A stretch of 64,000 bases of DNA from an uncultured Christensenellaceae bacterium (lineage in GTDB: Bacteria > Bacillota > Clostridia > Christensenellales > DTU072). The stretch covers positions 651 through 64,650 of the forward strand of contig CAYZOJ010000001.1 in NCBI GenBank assembly GCA_964480195.1, read 5' to 3'. Shown in pieces: positions 12,532 to 53,657 of the stretch. A model generated the notes under the pieces. The model was not told where the DNA came from, made no database searches, and saw nothing but the letters and a program-made list of their open reading frames with translations. Both the position numbers and the translations under genes were made by a program. Every line of letters begins with the position of its first letter. Position 1 is the first letter of the stretch.

Positions 12532-12544
12532 TAACTCAACTCCT

Positions 12545-12765
12545 AATCCGCTTAAATCAACGGCAACGCCGTTGTTAGCCATCACGCGATAGCGTGTGGT
12601 CAATCACACGTAGTGTGTATATCATCAACGCGTAGCGTTGTATATCATCACGCGCAAGCGTGTATATCATCAATCCGAAGGAATACACACTTCGTGTGAT
12701 GACATACAGCTCCGCTGATTACATACGCCTTTCGGCGATTACATACCTATCCTTCGGATTGGATA
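12545..12765. repeat. mini-hairpin array C (type-1 units, inverted relative to array A)
   Basis: About 10 consecutive 5-6 bp stem hairpins, e.g. caacgg-caacg-ccgttg, cacgc-gata-gcgtg, cacac-gta-gtgtg, aacgc-gta-gcgtt, cacgc-gcaa-gcgtg and cacac-ttc-gtgtg. They are separated by the linker tatatcatca, which is the reverse complement of tgatgatata in array A. Confidence 0.85.
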
Positions 12766-12799: not shown

Positions 12800-12874
12800 T
12801 GGTACCCCCATGGGGACTCGAACCCCAGATTCCGCCGTGAGAGGGCGACGTCTTAACCGCTTGACCATGAGGGC
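12800..12874 (-). tRNA. tRNA-Glu (anticodon CUC), CCA encoded
   Basis: The reverse complement reads GCCCTCA TG GTC AAGCGGTTAA GAC G TCGCC CTCTCAC GGCGG AATC TGGGG TTCGAGT CCCCA TGGGGGT A CCA. It folds as a 75-nt cloverleaf with a T-loop TTCGAGT. The anticodon arm CGCCCT-CTC-ACGGCGG parallels classical tRNA-Glu. Confidence 0.88.
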
Positions 12875-12891
12875 ATAATCAATGCTCGTTT

Positions 12892-12920
12892 AGTATATCA
12901 TAGCTAAAAACATAGTGCAA
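12892..12920 (-). promoter_or_regulatory. putative promoter of tRNA-Glu
   Basis: On the minus strand, TTGCAC (12920-12915) is followed by a 17-nt spacer and TATACT (12897-12892). It lies about 17 nt upstream of the mature tRNA 5' end. Confidence 0.45.
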
Positions 12921-12984
12921 GCGAATTTTTACATTTTTAATTTTTTTACCGATTACGGAACATTTCTTTGTCATTCCTTGCTCC

Positions 12985-13542
12985 TTATATAAATACCTCG
13001 TAAAGGATTTTGACGCACTCTTTTAGCCTGCCTTGCAGTTGCTCGGCACTCTCTTTTGCTCCGTTTTTGAGCCACGCCGTTAAGAATGCAGACGTGCATA
13101 CCGTCATCGTCGTCATTAAATACGTCATTTGCTCGTCGTCGATATCCGCATTCGGAAAGAAAAATGCCTTGCTCGCGCCGAGATACTTCAAATGTGTATT
13201 GTAAAGAAAATCCATACGGTTACTGTCTACTACCGCCTTTAATAACGCCTTATGCTCCATCCACTTTTTGATGTACGTCAACGTCGTTACGTCGGGCTCG
13301 CGGGACTTCATTTCCGCATACTCGCGACCGACTTCTTCGAATATGCTATCGCATAAATACGACAATACGTCCGCAATATTATCAAAAAGCCTATAAAACG
13401 TCGCACGTCCGACCGATGACGCCTTTTGTACGTCCGTTACCGTTACTTCGGAAAAACTCTTGTTTTTAAGGCAAACAAGCAGTCCGTTGCCTATGCGCTT
13501 TGCAGACCTAATTGCCCTTTTGTCGTTTGAGATATGATACAT
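12985..13542 (-). CDS. TetR/AcrR family transcriptional regulator
   Basis: N-terminal HTH (FSEVTVTDVQKASSVGRATFYRLFDNIADVL). 185 aa. Divergent from the hydrolase operon. Confidence 0.88.
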   Translation of the reverse strand: MYHISNDKRAIRSAKRIGNGLLVCLKNKSFSEVTVTDVQKASSVGRATFYRLFDNIADVLSYLCDSIFEEVGREYAEMKSREPDVTTLTYIKKWMEHKALLKAVVDSNRMDFLYNTHLKYLGASKAFFFPNADIDDEQMTYLMTTMTVCTSAFLTAWLKNGAKESAEQLQGRLKECVKILYEVFI

Positions 13543-27661: not shown

Positions 27662-27704
27662 ATTACCTCTTTGCGCGCCCTCACGCGCGCGACTATACGT
27701 GTAT

Positions 27705-27733
27705 ATTTTAACATACGCGCGCGTACTTGGCAA
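27705..27733 (-). promoter_or_regulatory. putative promoter of the giant lipoprotein gene
   Basis: On the minus strand, TTGCCA (27733-27728) is followed by a 17-nt spacer and TAAAAT (27710-27705). The resulting 5' UTR contains the hairpin gcgcgc-gtgagg-gcgcgc just before the SD. Confidence 0.4.
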
Positions 27734-27807
27734 TACGTTATGCGATTTTTTATCCCCTATTTATATAATAAAAGCATATGTTGAGCAAATTATTTACTTA
27801 TTATTTA

Positions 27808-28268
27808 CCGCAAAGCGGTGCGCAAGCAAAGCTTGCGCTATACAATCCTTGCGGATTGATGATATACAACGCCTACGCGTTGATGATATACACACTACGT
27901 GTGATGATATACACGCTATCGCGTGATTGACCACAACGGCTGTGCCGTTGATTAAGGTATTTAGGAGCGGAATGACAATCCCTCCGCGCTACGCGCTATA
28001 CAATCCTTACAGATTGATGATATACAACGCCTACGCGTTGATGATATACACACTACGTGTGATGATATACACACTGCGTGTGATGATATACACGCTATCG
28101 CGTGATTGACCACAACGGCACAGCCGTAGACTGAGGGATTGTCATATATATTCTTAAATACCACAACTTTCACGAAGTGAAAATTTCACCTGCCGTAGGC
28201 AGATTTCACCCGCGAAGCGGATTTCACCTTGCGCAAGCAAGATTTCACCGGCGAAAGTCTCTTTCGCC
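27808..28268. repeat. mini-hairpin array A (type-1 units x2 blocks, a core inverted repeat, then type-2 units)
   Basis: About 19 hairpins. The type-1 linker tgatgatataca occurs 7 times, with stems caacgc/gcgttg, cacac/gtgtg, cacgc/gcgtg and caacgg/ccgttg. A block of about 158 bp starting gcgctatacaatcc occurs twice in tandem (27835 and 27993). Type-2 units (28168-28268) use the linker (a/g)atttcacc with stems tttcac-gaa-gtgaaa, cctgcc-gta-ggcag, ccgc-gaa-gcgg, cttgc-gcaa-gcaag and ggcgaaag-tct-ctttcgcc. Confidence 0.9.
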
Positions 28269-28272
28269 CTGT

Positions 28273-28466
28273 GGCGCATTGTATAGCTCTCGGCGGGATA
28301 TTTAGTCCTATAATGCGAAAAAATCGGAGCGGAAGCTGTACAAAGGTACGCGGGCGGAGATTTGGGCGCCCGTAAGGGCTTAACAAGCCCTTTATTTCGC
28401 ATTAGAGGGCTGAAGAGCCCGTCGAGAGCGTGTAGACAAATAAAACCCGAAAAATTAAAAATAGGC
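28273..28466. ncRNA. unclassified structured module, copy 1 (candidate RNA or ssDNA element; strand undetermined)
   Basis: Colinear with 51048-51250 in the same orientation. The closing helix is gctctcggcggg (28286-28297) with cccgtcgagagc (28418-28429). The inner helix aatgcgaaa (28312-28320) with tttcgcatt (28395-28403) shows three compensatory pair changes in copy 2. Nested hairpins are gtac-aaag-gtac, cgggcg-N10-cgcccg and aagggctt-aac-aagccctt. Confidence 0.5.
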
Positions 28467-28483
28467 ATCCGCTATATCTGTTT

Positions 28484-28520
28484 ATACAAAGAAAAAAGCT
28501 GTCCGAGCGTCGAACAGCTT
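28484..28520 (-). terminator. rho-independent terminator of the IS200/RAYT-like gene
   Basis: aagctgt (28496-28502) pairs with acagctt (28514-28520), with an inner cga/tcg extension. On the minus strand it is followed by TTTTTTCTTTGT. Confidence 0.75.
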
Positions 28521-28558
28521 ATCTTCTTACTTCAAGTTAAATGCCTATTTTTCGGGTT

Positions 28559-29869
28559 TTATTTGTCGTAACACATTGAGGTGAGCGTCATTATTCGGTT
28601 GGGATCTTCAAAGGTGTTGATTATACCGAACTGCTTGATTACGAACTCGACGCTCGTATTTCTCTTTTCCGCAACGTATCTGATAAGCTCGACAAGGAAA
28701 TTATCGTTGAAATACACGACTTGTCCGCCGGCAACCGCACAATACGCAAATCCCATCATCGAGAAAATCTGGTCGATGCTGTATCCGAGTCTGTCGGAAA
28801 GCAAAAGTATGGTGTCGCGCATAAGCTTGTTGCCTTCGGGTACGATTTGCAACGCTTCTACGTTCTGGTCGTACGTTTGGCGCATATTGACGGTAAGTTC
28901 CGCCATAACCTTTACGAGAGTAACATACTTGTCGGTGCGGGTTATCGCAAGCTTCGAGCATATAGCATCGTAACTGAATCCACCTCTCTCGTTGATTTCC
29001 GCAATAATCCTCGGCATAAGGTTGTTGGGAATGGCTCTCTTGGTGTAGCAACCATAGTCGATGAGCACGTTTTCGATGGTCGCACGGAACTTGTCGATTT
29101 CGGGAAGATTAAGGAAGTCTTCCGGTATCGTACGCAAGCCGTCGTCATACGCTTCCGCCAAAAGCTTTTCGGCTTTAGCAACGCCCATCGTTTCATACAA
29201 ACTGTCACGGCACGCGAGCGAACCAGCGTCGGAACACGCCTTGCCGTAAGAGCTGAACGGATACGCCCAACTGTGCGTTAAAAAGTTCGCGTACGGCTGA
29301 CTTTCGATAATGGCTACGCTTTCGGCTAAATCTTTATGTTCCTTAACTTTCTTTACGCGAAGTCTGCTCTTGAATACAAAACCCGCCGTCTGGAAGTTCT
29401 CGTTAAAGAACTTGGCGTAAAGCGTGTTTGCCGTATCGAAGAATCTACGGTAGCTTACGGGCGTTTGGTCATATGACGCGATAAGGAAATATGCCCTATT
29501 GTTGATGACGGAGTATGCAACTATATCCACGGGGAACGATCCGACTGCCGTCATTATACATTTGAGATAATACATCTTTGCGCCCGGGGTGGGGAATACT
29601 ATACATTTGGGTCTGCCGTCTACCGCTACACGATAGAAATCCGGTTTGACGGTATTGTACGCGTTGACGCGACGATCCGCCCTACGTTGGTCAGACGGAA
29701 GTCTGCCGATGGGGGCTGCGTTGATTATTGCGCGGGTCGGCTTACCGTGTACAAATCCTGCTTGAATAGTGTTCGCCTCTACGGGTCCCACGTTTGTAGG
29801 ATTGGTTACGCGGATAGTCTCCTGCGGAGTGTTACACGAGCATCCGTTGTGATTGTGTTCGTTTGCCAT
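28559..29869 (-). CDS. IS200/RAYT-like (COG1943, Y1 HUH transposase fold) homolog with degenerate catalytic motifs and an HTH-like C-terminal region
   Basis: The core aligns by eye with Firmicutes IS200-like/REP-associated tyrosine transposases. Examples are DFYRVAVDG vs GIYHVMLRG, VAYSVINNRAYFLIA vs YAYCLMxNHxHLLI, GFVFKSRLRVKKV vs GHLFQDRFKSExV, AIIESQPYANF vs RYIHQNPVKAG, and YPFSSYG vs YKWSSY. HUH is replaced by R-A-Y and the helix Tyr is absent. 436 aa. Confidence 0.65.
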   Translation of the reverse strand: MANEHNHNGCSCNTPQETIRVTNPTNVGPVEANTIQAGFVHGKPTRAIINAAPIGRLPSDQRRADRRVNAYNTVKPDFYRVAVDGRPKCIVFPTPGAKMYYLKCIMTAVGSFPVDIVAYSVINNRAYFLIASYDQTPVSYRRFFDTANTLYAKFFNENFQTAGFVFKSRLRVKKVKEHKDLAESVAIIESQPYANFLTHSWAYPFSSYGKACSDAGSLACRDSLYETMGVAKAEKLLAEAYDDGLRTIPEDFLNLPEIDKFRATIENVLIDYGCYTKRAIPNNLMPRIIAEINERGGFSYDAICSKLAITRTDKYVTLVKVMAELTVNMRQTYDQNVEALQIVPEGNKLMRDTILLLSDRLGYSIDQIFSMMGFAYCAVAGGQVVYFNDNFLVELIRYVAEKRNTSVEFVIKQFGIINTFEDPNRIMTLTSMCYDK

Positions 29870-50675: not shown

Positions 50676-50930
50676 GCTTAGTGCTAAGATGGGCTGACGG
50701 AATGATGTTTGCCTTACGGCAATGAGGCTTGCGCAATGATGTTGCCTTCGGCAATACTGCTTGCGCAATGAAATCTTGCTTTGCAAGATGAAATCCGCAT
50801 TCGCGGGTGAAATCTGCCTACGGCAGGTGAAATATTCGCTTCGCGAATGTTGTGGTATTTAGGAGCAGAATGACAATCCCTCAGTCTACGCCGTAAACGG
50901 CGTATCCAGCTCCCTTTACACAAAGGAGCC
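50676..50930. repeat. mini-hairpin array B (type-2 units and core motif, inverted relative to array A)
   Basis: Hairpins include ttgcc-ttac-ggcaa, ttgcc-ttc-ggcaa, tcttgc-ttt-gcaaga, ccgc-attc-gcgg, ctgcc-tac-ggcag, attcgc-ttc-gcgaat and cgccg-taaa-cggcg. The linker (g/a)tgaaat is the reverse complement of atttca(c/t) in array A. The core motif ttgtggtatttaggagcagaatgacaatccctcagtctacg lies at 50849-50889. Confidence 0.85.
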
Positions 50931-51047: not shown

Positions 51048-51250
51048 GGCGCATTGTGTAGCTCTCGGTGGGATATTTAGTCATATAACGCAAGAAAATC
51101 CGAGCGGAAGCAGTACAAGCGTACGCGGGCGAGGATTTGGGCGCCCGTAAGGGCTTAACAAGCCCTTTATCTTGCGTTAGAGGGCTGAAGAGCACAGCGA
51201 GAGCGTATATAGTGGGGAGCAAGTAAAACCCGAAAAATTAAAAATAGGCT
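51048..51250. ncRNA. unclassified structured module, copy 2
   Basis: Same order and orientation as 28273-28466. The closing helix is gctctcggtggg (51061-51072) with cacagcgagagc (51193-51204). The inner helix is aacgcaaga (51087-51095) with tcttgcgtt (51170-51178). The three nested hairpins are conserved. Confidence 0.5.
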
Positions 51251-51269
51251 ATCCGCTAACGTTCTCCGT

Positions 51270-51305
51270 ATAAGAAAAATAGACTAACGTGTTGCCGTCA
51301 GCCTA
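51270..51305 (-). terminator. rho-independent terminator of the 771-aa gene
   Basis: On the minus strand, TAGGCTGAC-ggcaacac-GTTAGTCTA forms a 9-bp stem with two G.U pairs valid only in the minus sense. It is followed by TTTTTCTTAT. Confidence 0.6.
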
Positions 51306-51341
51306 TTACTTTTCTAATCATACCCGCCTATTTTTCGGGTT

Positions 51342-53657
51342 TTACTTGCTCTTCACGATAAAAATAAGACCTGCGTGCGGAGCAAGTTTGATTGCCTTGC
51401 CGAGATTAAACGGACGTCCCTTTTGCATATTCCTTATCTCGGGACAACGGACTTTTTTGCCGACTGTCGTGAACCCGAGTTTGTTTTCGACGCCTATTTC
51501 GAACGTCTTTTTCTCTTCGGAATCGTTATACAAAACGGCTATCATATCTTTGCCGTTGATATACGACGTGCAATAGACGGACGCGTTATCCGATCTCACG
51601 GGATTGGTCTTGTCCCAATAGCCCTTTAACTCGGCATTTCCTATGTCGAAATCGCGGAATACGCGGTTAAGATCCTCTATCGCCTCGGTCGTTTCTTCAT
51701 CCTCACCGACACACGGGATTATTCCCGTCAGCAATCCCCTGCATATGCCTATCGGCGAGAGCGAATCGACGGTGAAGCCGTACGGCACACCGCTTACGCC
51801 TATCAATGTGGAATCGAGATCACGATCTCCGTATCCTTTTACTGCAACCTTAGAAACGAACGGCAATACGTCCGCATAAGTCGAAAGAGTATCTATGCGA
51901 CAGTCGGAATCCCCGTATCTGTTCGACAACACAAGTTCGGTAAATCCGCCCCCTCTTTTGCGGGTCATACATTTTTGTATTCTCTCCGCAACCGTAGGGG
52001 TAAGCGACGGATTGTGCATCGAAACGAAGTCGATATCCGCAACGCCTATAAGCCTCTTTAACGACTCGACGTAATAGTTATCGAACCTTGACGCCGTGGC
52101 TATGTGCCCGAACTCGCCAAAGTCCGTACGGAAACGGTCGAACATTATTTCGCCGTCCAACGACATTAGCGCGTAATACTCCGCGACATCGGATCCGAGC
52201 GTGTTGATACCGTATTCCAAACCGCACGCAATATCACGCTTATGGGCTACCAAAGTGAGCTTTTTGAGAGCCTTAACATCGTCTTGGACACTCTTTACGT
52301 GAGCGTTGCCCGCAGAAGGACGACCTACCGACAACGACGTCGTGCAGTAGCGCGAAGCGCGTGCCGACTCATCTTGGAAACCGCCTTGACCGAGTGTATA
52401 AATCCTGTTCCCTGCCGAAGCTCTGAGATCCAACGGACGGAACGGAGTAAGGTGTATATCGAAGCAGAACGACACCTTGTCGCCCTTTGCAAAAATCATC
52501 TTGCCTGTATACGCCGAGAACAACGCGCCTTCGTCTATTCTGCGAACGGTTACTCCGCCTTTGCCGTAATTTGCCCAAGTGGTCTTAGGCGGACGGGCGC
52601 CCGTTTCCAACGGGGCTCCGTATACGGGGAAGTCGCAGTTGTCGCGGTTTTCTCTAAGTCTTATACGGGCACCGCAGTTTACGTTGCCGATATAAAGATA
52701 GTCCCCGCCGACTTCCGTCCATTTGTAATCGAGGTCTTTGAGTCTACCCGGAGCCATACCCATTCCGACACCGTAATCGGCAGACGCAAAATACGCGTTC
52801 AGGCGTATGTCTTCGACAATGGCGTCTTCAAACGCGTCTATCGTAACGGTATAATGCAAAACGCCCTCGTAATGCGCTTCTGCGTTTACGGTTATATGCA
52901 ACTTATCGGATCTGCCGTCGGAAACTATTAACGCGGAATCGGGCTTATCGGTAATCTTTATACGGTTATACTTAAACTTTTGCCCTTCCGCGATAAACTC
53001 CATGGGACGGAAAAACAGCGACGCCGTTACCTCGTCCGTAAGCGCGTTGGATTCGGAATAATAGCTCTCGACGTCATTTATAAAGCCGTCGCCCGTAAAA
53101 CTCACGCGTTTTCCCGTAAACGTTACGGAGTTCTTGTCCGCCGAAACCGCGTAGAAACCCGGGACGAGTTTCTTATCCATATATTCGGTGGAATTGAGCC
53201 ATTTTAGCCTTGCAAGCGTGCTTCCGTCGTCCGTACCCTCGTTAAAAACGAGTTTGTCGGTAAGCTTGAATACGAGTTCCACTTTTTCGCCGTCAACGTA
53301 AACGTCCGTGCGATATTCGTCGATATCCGCTCTCGAGAGGTCTACGCCTATCAACAGAACGGTTATCGCGCCCGCGTTTACTCTGACGGGACGGGTAAAT
53401 TTTTTACCGTCCGCGCCGACGCCTTCGGAATTAAAGCAAGTTACGGCTTTATCGAAATTCTTGTTTGCACCTCTGAGCGGTCCCGTTTTGACCTCGACAA
53501 GCGCGTCAAAGCCCGTCAAAACAGCCAGCTGAACGACGTAATACTCGTGCCTTGACGGCGTATATTCGAACGTACGTCCGTCGTTTAACCCGTCAAGCAC
53601 GGAAAGATCGTAACGGTCGCTAATTACCGTTTTTCGGTCAATCGAATAAATTTTCAT
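51342..53657 (-). CDS. uncharacterised 771-aa protein, possibly a glycoside-hydrolase-like enzyme (operonic with GH2)
   Basis: Long ORF with SD ggagaa and no signal peptide. It sits 12 nt downstream of the GH2 gene. I cannot assign a family from sequence alone; the GH123/DUF4091-like idea is only a guess. Confidence 0.6.
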   Translation of the reverse strand: MKIYSIDRKTVISDRYDLSVLDGLNDGRTFEYTPSRHEYYVVQLAVLTGFDALVEVKTGPLRGANKNFDKAVTCFNSEGVGADGKKFTRPVRVNAGAITVLLIGVDLSRADIDEYRTDVYVDGEKVELVFKLTDKLVFNEGTDDGSTLARLKWLNSTEYMDKKLVPGFYAVSADKNSVTFTGKRVSFTGDGFINDVESYYSESNALTDEVTASLFFRPMEFIAEGQKFKYNRIKITDKPDSALIVSDGRSDKLHITVNAEAHYEGVLHYTVTIDAFEDAIVEDIRLNAYFASADYGVGMGMAPGRLKDLDYKWTEVGGDYLYIGNVNCGARIRLRENRDNCDFPVYGAPLETGARPPKTTWANYGKGGVTVRRIDEGALFSAYTGKMIFAKGDKVSFCFDIHLTPFRPLDLRASAGNRIYTLGQGGFQDESARASRYCTTSLSVGRPSAGNAHVKSVQDDVKALKKLTLVAHKRDIACGLEYGINTLGSDVAEYYALMSLDGEIMFDRFRTDFGEFGHIATASRFDNYYVESLKRLIGVADIDFVSMHNPSLTPTVAERIQKCMTRKRGGGFTELVLSNRYGDSDCRIDTLSTYADVLPFVSKVAVKGYGDRDLDSTLIGVSGVPYGFTVDSLSPIGICRGLLTGIIPCVGEDEETTEAIEDLNRVFRDFDIGNAELKGYWDKTNPVRSDNASVYCTSYINGKDMIAVLYNDSEEKKTFEIGVENKLGFTTVGKKVRCPEIRNMQKGRPFNLGKAIKLAPHAGLIFIVKSK

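Follow-up and report, generated by a model that had tools for sequence, protein, structure and literature searches.

The Gut-1 motif (Rfam RF01706) was described from 43 examples, all of them in human-gut metagenomes, and was rated a likely small RNA with no known function (Weinberg et al. 2010, PMC2864571). Its seed alignment places forward units ahead of reverse units, with tRNA genes upstream. As for DNA hairpins, GNA triloops, d(cGNAg), and GNNA tetraloops, d(cGNNAg), are given as the very stable loops in PMC10085684, which cites Nakano 2002. Here we analyse an array of mini-hairpins at positions 27808-28268 of a 64,000-nucleotide stretch of DNA from an uncultured Christensenellaceae bacterium (contig CAYZOJ010000001.1; this stretch is hereafter called the window). 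An initial annotation, made from the letters alone, had likened the array to repetitive extragenic palindromic (REP) sequences, bacterial interspersed mosaic elements (BIMEs) or BOX elements, and had linked it to a neighbouring gene resembling those for REP-associated tyrosine transposases (RAYTs). We find that the array combines a full-length Gut-1 member with units of a second type. We give about an even chance to the explanation that the interval is a two-dialect mosaic insertion, in which a strand-specific repeat of hairpins and linkers, dispersed and typical of uncultured Clostridia from gut and rumen, is read as single-stranded nucleic acid by a trans-acting factor. What is new here is the sister dialect, the composite architectures and their setting between tRNA gene, terminator and promoter, the strand and loop statistics, the variable presence, and a link to genes of the PF05635 family.

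Unit design and folding strand of the array

Comparison of the window with Rfam identified positions 28178-28250 on the minus strand as a match to the Gut-1 model over its full length (model positions 1-77 of 77; 67.2 bits, E 3e-11, against a gathering score of 50 bits), a known family that the initial annotation had missed. Judged by model score, predicted membership of Gut-1 is confined to these positions. The remaining units, which we call type 1, reach 24.5 bits at 27835-27915 and 29.9 bits at 28015-28094 on the Gut-1 model (both on the plus strand), which is below the gathering score; the type-1 units of the window match no other Rfam family, and type-1 composites of canonical form from 13 other loci (see below) gave no Rfam match at the gathering score. 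The alignment to the Gut-1 model places the type-1 units on the plus strand, with UGAUAU in place of UGAAAU linkers and with loop polarity alike. Because the Gut-1 design is common to both types but type 1 has no Rfam match at the gathering score, type 1 (with UGAUGAUAUACA linkers) is an uncatalogued sister dialect of Gut-1 (with GUGAAAU linkers). The two dialects occur within one genome in the window and in the genomes of two further loci (L129 and L184; loci fetched from other genomes are denoted by L and a number). A literature search with the linker sequences returned unrelated primers only.

Counted on the sequence, the interval holds 19 mini-hairpins with stems of 4-8 bp. Seven exact copies of the type-1 linker TGATGATATACA start at 27857, 27881, 27902, 28015, 28039, 28060 and 28081, spaced 21-24 nt, and at two mismatches or fewer this linker occurs 17 times in the whole window against 2.8 copies expected, a number equalled in 0/100 shuffles. 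Four type-2 linkers, (A/G)ATTTCACC (that is, AATTTCACC or GATTTCACC), lie at 28182, 28202, 28220 and 28241. The predicted folds of both strands are some nine standard deviations below dinucleotide shuffles (plus strand, -175 kcal/mol against -116 +/- 6.6, z = -9.0; minus strand, -190.5 kcal/mol against -135 +/- 5.8, z = -9.5; 0/100 shuffles as good in either case). The dense array of mini-hairpins with constant linkers that had been proposed is thus borne out, as are the exact GCGAAGC mini-hairpin sequence at 28212-28218 and the mutual inversion of the two sub-arrays, whose plus-strand loops read CTAC, TAC or TATC in type 1 and GAA, GTA, GAA and GCAA in type 2 and so have opposite polarity.

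To describe the unit we pooled 120 genome loci and the window, which gave 266 distinct inter-linker segments. Each unit has the core RTGAWAT(A) on one strand and (T)ATWTCAY on the other, with a short hairpin alongside; when hairpins are extended maximally, the unpaired linker core is the 8-mer ATGATATA or TATATCAT (158 and 158 occurrences), and the CA and TG of the 12-mer linker form the foot of each hairpin. Stem sequence is free; the pairing, the C-G closing pair and the loop type are conserved. Specifically, symmetric inter-linker positions form Watson-Crick pairs at 92%, compared with 28% after shuffling, and a C-G pair closes 195 of 240 hairpins. On the strand on which the linker reads TATATCAT there are 71 GNA triloops against 2 of the form TNC (p 6e-19), in keeping with the earlier claim that GNA/GNNA-type loops lie on one strand, and single mismatches comprise 30 G.T against 3 A.C (p 1e-6). 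Since pairing, loops and mismatches are skewed in this way, we conclude that selection acts on the hairpins and that, relative to the linker, it favours folding of one particular strand. Read along this strand, the linker is TATATCAT or ATTTCAC and the loops are GNA or GNNA; for type 1 the strand is opposite to the Rfam Gut-1 orientation, and in composites with two arms, one arm folds on the top strand and the other on the bottom. In Gut-1 proper the wobble count is 3 vs 3, the mismatches being too few.

Hairpins in RNA are expected to be capped mostly by GNRA or UNCG tetraloops. Among the repeats, triloops outnumber tetraloops (154 vs 86), GNA accounts for 71 of the 154 triloops, and the tetraloops include 25 GNRA and 19 GNYA (GTTA, GTCA, GATA and GACA). 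This spectrum appears to fit the stable DNA motifs better than the GNRA loops of RNA, and it would favour DNA, short of proof.

The array also carries marks of its own growth. Positions 27835-27917 and 27993-28075 are 96% identical, the second copy having one extra unit (28060-28080, compared with 28039-28059) with a single loop-base change, TAC vs TGC; moreover, the hairpin at 27936-27950 is the exact reverse complement of that at 28113-28127, with a flipped loop, TGT vs ACA. The extra unit and the flipped hairpin suggest footprints of unit duplication and of template switching.

In order, the array begins at its promoter-proximal edge with two leading hairpins of predicted fold CCGC-AAA-GCGG and GCGCAAGC-AAA-GCTTGCGC (27808-27838). 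Type-1 block 1 (27835-27950, plus strand) has three TGATGATATACA linkers and a degenerate linker, TGATTGACCACA, with a variable mini-hairpin after each; its plus strand gives the Rfam-like RTGAWAT reading, its minus strand the better predicted fold, and it is a paralogue of the reverse complement of 12555-12650 (88% identity). A connector (27951-27992), of which 27956-27984 is found again at 50854-50882, leads to type-1 block 2 (27993-28130, plus strand), the duplicate of block 1 with the extra unit, which has the linkers at 28015, 28039, 28060 and 28081 and ends in the hairpin at 28113-28127. An inverted connector, GAGGGATTGTCAT...AAATACCACAAC (28131-28167), is a module shared with 50842-50882, and a perfect 13-bp inverted repeat (27972-27984 and 28133-28145) brackets block 2. 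The type-2 block (28168-28268, minus strand) is the Gut-1 motif, with four or five hairpins spaced by GGUGAAAU on the minus strand, and is a paralogue of the reverse complement of 50769-50890 (89.5% identity). Compared with the composites described below, this layout of two forward type-1 blocks followed by one reverse Gut-1 block is atypical. Promoters inside the linkers were considered and rejected: the best candidate, TGGTCA-18-TATCAT (9/12 consensus), comes from one degenerate linker and is at shuffle level.

Spread, composite architecture and variable presence

To determine how widely the repeat occurs, we scanned contigs of one genome per species with the pattern TGATGATATACA-N9-13-TGATGATATACA. 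The type-1 dialect was found in at least 120 stretches from at least 63 assemblies among the matches listed, these being species-representative metagenome-assembled genomes (MAGs), some with several loci. The units are therefore not restricted to the three loci of the window, a restriction that the initial annotation had named as one part of the grounds for giving up its proposal. All hosts among these matches are uncultured Clostridia MAGs from animal (including rumen) and human gut, namely Oscillospiraceae, Acutalibacteraceae, Eubacteriales, Christensenella-like bacteria and Ruminococcus. The type-1 pattern had no match in viral contigs, plasmids or phages, and the looser pattern GTGAWAT x3 gave mostly unrelated matches in viral contigs; a plasmid, phage or viral origin was rejected, given the lack of matches in such collections. 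True Gut-1 arrays numbered about 24 in a metagenome scan.

The type-1 arrays (n=215) include 66 composites in which reverse units precede forward units, against 2 with the opposite order; 82 arrays are solo. A canonical composite is about 230 nt long. It starts with AAATCA and a hairpin, followed by two to four repeats of TGTATATCATCA-hairpin; in the middle there is a centre, for example AGCCGCAGG, and then three repeats of TGATGAxATxCA-hairpin; and at the end come CCAAGCCTGCGGCTTGG, ATAAAAAAA, a terminator hairpin, a T-run and a convergent tRNA gene. We found tRNA genes, of many kinds, at 46 of 120 loci, the array typically starting 50-70 nt beyond the tRNA 3' end. Gut-1 composites, which we read by eye rather than by script, mirror this arrangement, with a forward arm followed by a reverse arm at about 10 loci and the opposite order at 0; they lie directly after a tRNA gene and its terminator, starting 10-15 nt past the terminator, with a promoter next. 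In at least 15 of 49 cases the outer composite end, consisting of the last hairpin and TTGATT, supplies a TTGATT -35 box 17 nt before TATAAT. Genes in the fetched loci were taken as long open reading frames (ORFs); solo arrays show no orientation bias towards flanking genes or a replication proxy, and most arrays elsewhere adjoin unrelated genes. Taken together, the arrays settle next to terminators, especially just beyond tRNA genes, and upstream of promoters.

Two simple origins for the composites were tried and set aside. An invertible segment had been suggested by 9-12-bp inverted repeats that the centre and the last hairpin form on either side of the forward arm, and all 60 of 60 terminal CCAAG...CTTGG hairpins are in the canonical orientation, with 0 flipped. 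A simple inverted duplication is rejected because, apart from the centre/last pair, hairpins in one arm bear no relation to those in the other.

Copy counts for the source organism cover the 64-kb window, which has two loci besides 27808-28268. The second, 12540-12760, is a canonical type-1 composite in which reverse units (hairpin-TGTATATCATCA) come first and forward units after, ending in ...GGATAAAAAAAA, then a terminator hairpin, a T-run and the convergent tRNA-Glu gene (12800-12874, minus strand); its units score 20 bits on the Gut-1 model. The third, 50690-50890 (plus strand), has Gut-1-like units with AUGAAAU or GUGAAAU linkers (34.5 and 28.4 bits, below threshold) followed by the shared connector, and lies upstream of the promoter of a gene for a 1860-aa MBG_2 protein. 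Blocks 86-90% identical are common to the three loci, in both relative orientations. We note that both non-tRNA loci of the window, 27808-28268 and 50690-50890, each precede the promoter of a gene for a giant MBG_2/Big_3 surface protein (3810 aa and 1860 aa, respectively), and that giant repeat proteins also adjoin several arrays of other genomes.

Relatives of the source organism lack these arrays at corresponding sites. The intergenic region next to the gene for the neighbouring 436-aa protein is 895 bp here and 343, 360 and 184 bp in three relatives (L001, L245 and L248) whose 436-aa proteins are 79%, 67% and 47% identical; these regions keep the giant-gene promoter and 5' leader and have no array, with one type-1-like unit in L001. 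Likewise, in a relative whose UvrC is 78% identical (L376), the orthologous spacer from tRNA-Glu to uvrC has the tRNA gene and terminator and no array. Two independent contigs of the closest relative, whose UvrC is 91% identical, stop within the tRNA-Glu gene (L374:1-170 and L375:1-170, compared with window 12800-12990), and the tRNA-Glu upstream region abuts uvrC directly, arranged differently from the window, either through inversion or through an assembly break at the repeat. Contig ends frequently fall at arrays. Because the arrays are multi-copy, contain duplicated and inverted blocks, are missing from orthologous sites and show no orientation bias, they behave as dispersed repeats; they are an expanding family, gained and lost between close relatives, and no single conserved small-RNA gene.

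Neighbouring genes as candidate partners

The array is flanked on one side by a gene (28559-29869, minus strand) for a 436-aa protein that, in a structure model, has an N-terminal fold like that of Y1/HUH transposases (RAYT-like) and a helical C-terminal half. The AlphaFold model (mean predicted local distance difference test score, pLDDT, 75.6) has as its top Foldseek match a RAYT bound to a REP hairpin (4ER8; E 9e-5, template-modelling score 0.66 on the target), followed by the IS608, IS200 and ISDra2 TnpA structures (2A6M, 2VJU, 2EC2, 2F4F and 2XMA), and the predicted model shows the beta-alpha-beta-beta-alpha-beta-alpha fold of Y1 HUH proteins. The sequence has no match in Pfam or NCBIfam, even at lenient thresholds, or in the PDB, and none to PF01797 up to E 10. 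An alignment of 25 homologues has no invariant His column, 'SVINNRAYFLIAS' standing at the HUH strand, and no Tyr in the helix before 'ESQP'; the HUH and catalytic-Tyr positions are presumed from the motifs of the family. From its motifs, the protein is predicted to lack HUH, to lack the catalytic Tyr as judged by motif position, and to be catalytically dead.

The gene has a fixed place of its own. In the cluster order (a GH94-like gene, a Big_3 protein gene, an aminotransferase gene, two class-II aldolase genes, MFS_2, the 436-aa gene and the gene for the giant Big_3/MBG_2 protein) its synteny holds down to 38% identity, with no arrays beside it in those relatives. None of 120 array loci has a homologue within about 4 kb (795 kb in total), and the family comprises 25 clusters only, against arrays in at least 63 species. 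It is a resident gene, perhaps tied to the giant surface-protein gene, and not the mobiliser of the arrays. The proposed RAYT partnership is rejected on these grounds, namely a fold without motifs, strict synteny, array-less orthologues and no homologues near arrays: the part of the initial annotation that concerned the fold stands (4ER8, E 9e-5), the part that concerned function and association does not, given the lack of HUH (and, by inference, of Tyr) and of any association with arrays, and the suggested co-variation of units with the RAYT-like gene fails at both the 120 array loci and the orthologues. As a separate observation, in the window and in relatives (L001 and L245-L251) the 436-aa gene lies in strict synteny directly upstream of the giant Big_3/MBG_2 gene of 3,700-4,100 aa; its product may be a domesticated hairpin-binding domain acting on the giant gene.

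Around the array lie further elements. The promoter of the 3810-aa gene (TTGCCA-17-TAAAAT, 27705-27733, minus strand), predicted from sequence and kept in orthologous loci, has the array upstream of it. The giant gene has alternating-CG palindromes on either side of its -10 box and leader (window 27664-27745, minus strand; L001:11590-11660; L245:11500-11560), with ACGCGCGCGT between -35 and -10 and CGCGCGC-GTGAGG-GCGCGC just ahead of the ribosome-binding site, and they are kept in the array-less orthologues. On the other side, a repeat module of about 290 nt with nested long inverted repeats (28273-28567, minus strand; arms of 38 nt at 28286-28323/28392-28429 and of 21 nt at 28435-28455/28547-28567) holds the terminator of the 436-aa gene (28520-28496). 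It has a paralogue at 51048-51344, the two lying in like orientation directly past the stop codons of two unrelated genes, and matches no Rfam family. It is no hairpin-linker array itself, yet belongs to the same lineage-specific filling.

Clustering of the genes that adjoin arrays revealed one recurrent small family, PF05635/TIGR02436, annotated as 'four-helix-bundle, 23S rRNA intervening-sequence protein', a family with similarity to the Avd proteins of diversity-generating retroelements (PMC10053308). Sixteen such genes occur in the array loci that the DNA patterns retrieved, and all 16 have their 5' end 50-340 nt from the outer composite edge and are transcribed away from the array, 14 at type-1 loci (L138, L148, L149, L153, L155, L157, L162, L166, L177, L183, L184, L185, L216 and L230) and 2 at Gut-1 loci (L275 and L325). 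Their promoter takes its -35 box from the array's last hairpin and TTGATT, 17 nt before TATAAT, and the usual order is tRNA gene, terminator, array, promoter and PF05635 gene, with differing tRNAs (Arg, Asn, Leu, Thr, Cys and Ser). When we searched instead from the protein, the same order was found in two of three independent contexts, L380 (tRNA-Pro) and L396 (tRNA-Ser); the third, L386, has a DUF559 gene and no array. A protein search with the product of L184:4515-4859 gave more than 3,500 clusters, of which the best 120, from several Clostridia families, are nearly all 88-93% identical and lie mostly on contigs under 2 kb. These findings suggest that this PF05635 subfamily is a repeat-embedded gene that is either spreading horizontally or very strongly constrained, and that the repeats break assemblies. 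The window has no PF05635 gene, and about one in ten array loci has one. Downstream of 14 PF05635 genes we noted no reverse-transcriptase gene, as far as inspection of ORF sizes and tails goes, no domain search having been made; by the same inspection of those 14 genes a diversity-generating retroelement is rejected.

Some PF05635 genes have arrays on both sides (L184:4366-4440; L177 at about 990-1130), with a type-1 composite upstream and, in L184 and L177, a Gut-1-type array (ATGATAT or AGTGATG linkers) past the PF05635 terminator. In L396 (1230-1270 and 1900-1930) the same 24-nt terminator hairpin (ATCGGCAAGTT..AACTTGCCGAT, loop flipped) occurs twice, ahead of the composite and past the PF05635 gene; an inserted module may have duplicated its target here, a duplication not seen in L184, L177 and L380. 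We tentatively propose, as a rather doubtful idea, that arrays and PF05635 gene form an unrecognised selfish module at the 3' flank of stable-RNA genes, whose protein would read the single-stranded hairpin-linker units, gene-less arrays such as those in the window being its non-autonomous copies. If true, this would give a function to Gut-1 and a nucleic-acid partner to PF05635 outside diversity-generating retroelements; the link provides the first testable candidate partner for either element.

Competing explanations and comparison with known systems

According to the explanation to which we give even chances, the hairpin and linker together would form a recognition site, read single-stranded by a putative trans-acting factor. 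The molecule read would more likely be DNA, exposed during replication or transcription, than RNA, because of the kinds of loop, because the folding strand changes between arms, and because promoters are lacking. Arrays would grow and spread by duplication, template switching and insertion into new intergenic sites, much as REP/BIME do; growth by unit duplication and template switching is suggested by the extra unit and the flipped loop. The RAYT-like 436-aa protein would play no part, and the array of the window would be a lineage-specific filling between the 436-aa gene terminator (28520-28496) and the 3810-aa gene promoter (27733-27705).

Several observations count against this proposal. 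Composites keep a position-specific design, as a folded RNA would, and their centre covaries with the apical last hairpin, loop included, over 9-12 nt of complementarity in six or seven variants; the mean complementary run of centre and last hairpin is 7.9, compared with 5.25 +/- 0.26 with shuffled partners, which a folded RNA would show. A sub-group of Gut-1 arrays lies directly after stop codons in sense orientation, like a 3' untranslated region (3'-UTR), and many composites are flanked by bidirectional terminators, which makes it plausible that transcription comes from the array side. Neither a trans-acting enzyme nor a binding protein was identified, the argument for DNA over RNA draws on loop statistics and published thermodynamics, and no transposition footprint, target-site duplication or exact insertion boundary is definable, the intergenic regions of relatives being too diverged. 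The comparison genomes are, moreover, all MAGs, and the type-1 counts from the genome scan are lower bounds. As regards the stop-codon sub-group itself (L255, L260, L290, L291, L309 and L353), the genes concerned are unrelated, and the arrays start with a GCGCGC-TTAC-GCGCGC hairpin followed by a further conserved structured segment, …GGGGACGG-GAAG-CCGTCCCC….

A structured small RNA, as Rfam files Gut-1, could account for much of this, whether as a protein sponge of the CsrB/RsmZ type with linkers held single-stranded or as a multi-branch domain closed by the helix between centre and last hairpin. The 67-bit Rfam match, the rating of Gut-1 as a likely RNA in Weinberg 2010, the conserved joining strands with covarying helices and long-range covariation, the terminators that end forward arms and the variable unit number, as in sponge RNAs, all speak for it. 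We nevertheless think it a possible but rather unlikely explanation: no promoter precedes the arrays, Gut-1 composites beginning 10-15 nt past a tRNA terminator; the better-folding strand is opposite to the Rfam strand and switches between arms of one composite; the arrays are not biased in orientation towards genes; their copies are many, and their presence varies among relatives; and triloops and GNYA loops are atypical of RNA caps. The position of the main locus, of 50690-50890 and of canonical composites between terminator and promoter fits a cis-acting element, either one that stands between a strongly transcribed gene (a tRNA gene or, here, the 436-aa gene) and the next promoter as insulator or terminator back-up, or an exonuclease-blocking 3'-UTR stabiliser like E. 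coli REP, as do the TTGATT -35 box given by the composite end 17 nt before TATAAT (at least 15/49) and the Gut-1 arrays that start directly past stop codons. Neither role, however, needs a conserved 12-nt linker, strong intrinsic terminators already adjoin the arrays, the orthologous promoters of relatives work without arrays, and both orientations occur, so that we regard a cis-acting role as improbable.

The 21-24-bp period, the conservation of the linker as sequence and the position upstream of giant MBG_2/Big_3 promoters at two window loci would suit an array of double-stranded binding sites two helical turns apart, iteron- or operator-like, for instance for a regulator of the giant surface-protein gene. 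Such an array would leave the 92% Watson-Crick spacers, the fixed loop polarity and the excess of G.T over A.C unexplained; there is no plasmid or replication context, and unrelated genes stand beside most arrays elsewhere. We hold it to be quite improbable, and the iteron-like binding array raised by the initial annotation falls with it, given strand-specific hairpin selection and the lack of plasmid or phage similarity. Least room is left for REP/BIME-type elements bound and mobilised by the adjacent 436-aa protein. Its N-terminal domain has the RAYT/IS200 fold, arrays flank its gene on the 3' side, and they are intergenic, multi-copy and inverted like REP/BIME, but this explanation is largely refuted: there is no conserved HUH His among 25 homologues and, by inference, no catalytic Tyr, and no PF01797 match up to E 10; the gene is strictly syntenic down to 38% identity, with relatives' loci free of arrays; no homologue occurs in 795 kb around 120 array loci; and 25 family clusters stand against arrays in at least 63 species.

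Gut-1, which has been in Rfam since 2010 as an orphan human-gut motif without organism, context or function, is now placed in defined Clostridia lineages, as one dialect of a much larger hairpin-linker repeat family with a canonical architecture beside tRNA genes. Its filing as a small RNA is questioned because of the strand and loop statistics, which raise the possibility that the Rfam entry describes the wrong strand and perhaps the wrong kind of molecule. Metagenomic assemblies appear to be broken by the repeats, which also fill regulatory regions of giant surface-protein genes in abundant gut bacteria.

Of the described systems, Gut-1 is the one to which the array belongs in part: the type-2 block is a full-length member, with at least three hairpins spaced by GUGAAAU, and type-1 units share the RTGAWAT linker, the C-G-closed hairpin and the loop polarity. 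Gut-1 was described as a single small RNA, whereas here it is one module of a larger mosaic, multi-copy and variably present, found together with a sister dialect that is commoner and escapes detection by Rfam, and the statistics favour the strand opposite to the annotated one. The stable DNA mini-hairpins d(GCGAAGC), d(cGNAg) and d(cGNNAg) are matched on the favoured strand by C-G-closed GNA triloops, GNNA tetraloops and the exact GCGAAGC, although these are biophysical motifs and not a genetic element, and the hairpins here are predicted from sequence.

REP, BIME and REPIN (REP doublet) elements are similar in being intergenic and multi-copy, in forming inverted or alternating clusters near gene 3' ends and terminators, and in having most copies far from any associated gene; correspondingly, we find three loci in 64 kb, 66 inverted composites among 215 arrays and several loci per MAG. 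REPs are recognised as single-stranded hairpins, the present arrays by proposal only. A REP, however, conserves its palindrome and a 5' GTAG-type tetranucleotide, whereas here the stems are free (229-266 distinct stems) and conservation is limited to the linker and the CA/TG feet; units measure 21-25 nt, compared with 35-40 nt in REPs. A cognate active RAYT (HUH and Tyr) was not found beside arrays, no search for Y1 genes elsewhere in these genomes having been made. Because its palindromes are variable, its linker is conserved and it has no cognate active RAYT, we do not class the repeat as REP: of the likeness first proposed, the multi-copy, intergenic and inverted behaviour holds and the conserved palindrome does not. 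CsrB and RsmZ sponges share a variable number of short motifs between or on hairpins and several gene copies per genome, but their GGA motif lies mainly in hairpin loops and each gene has its own promoter, whereas here the motif is the linker, no promoter is evident, and the strand evidence disagrees with one transcript over the composite. Finally, BOX elements, iteron arrays and CRISPRs are all distinct from the array. The BOX elements of pneumococci (boxA-boxB(n)-boxC) are likewise modular intergenic repeats with variable internal units and predicted stable folding, but the BOX description sets the array apart, and with it that part of the initial proposal, since BOX modules have 45-59 conserved nt and the units here have 8-12 conserved positions in 21-25 nt and inverted arms. 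Iterons are identical 17-22-bp direct repeats beside a rep gene or origin on a plasmid or phage, whereas these arrays are chromosomal, lie among housekeeping genes and have palindromic spacers.

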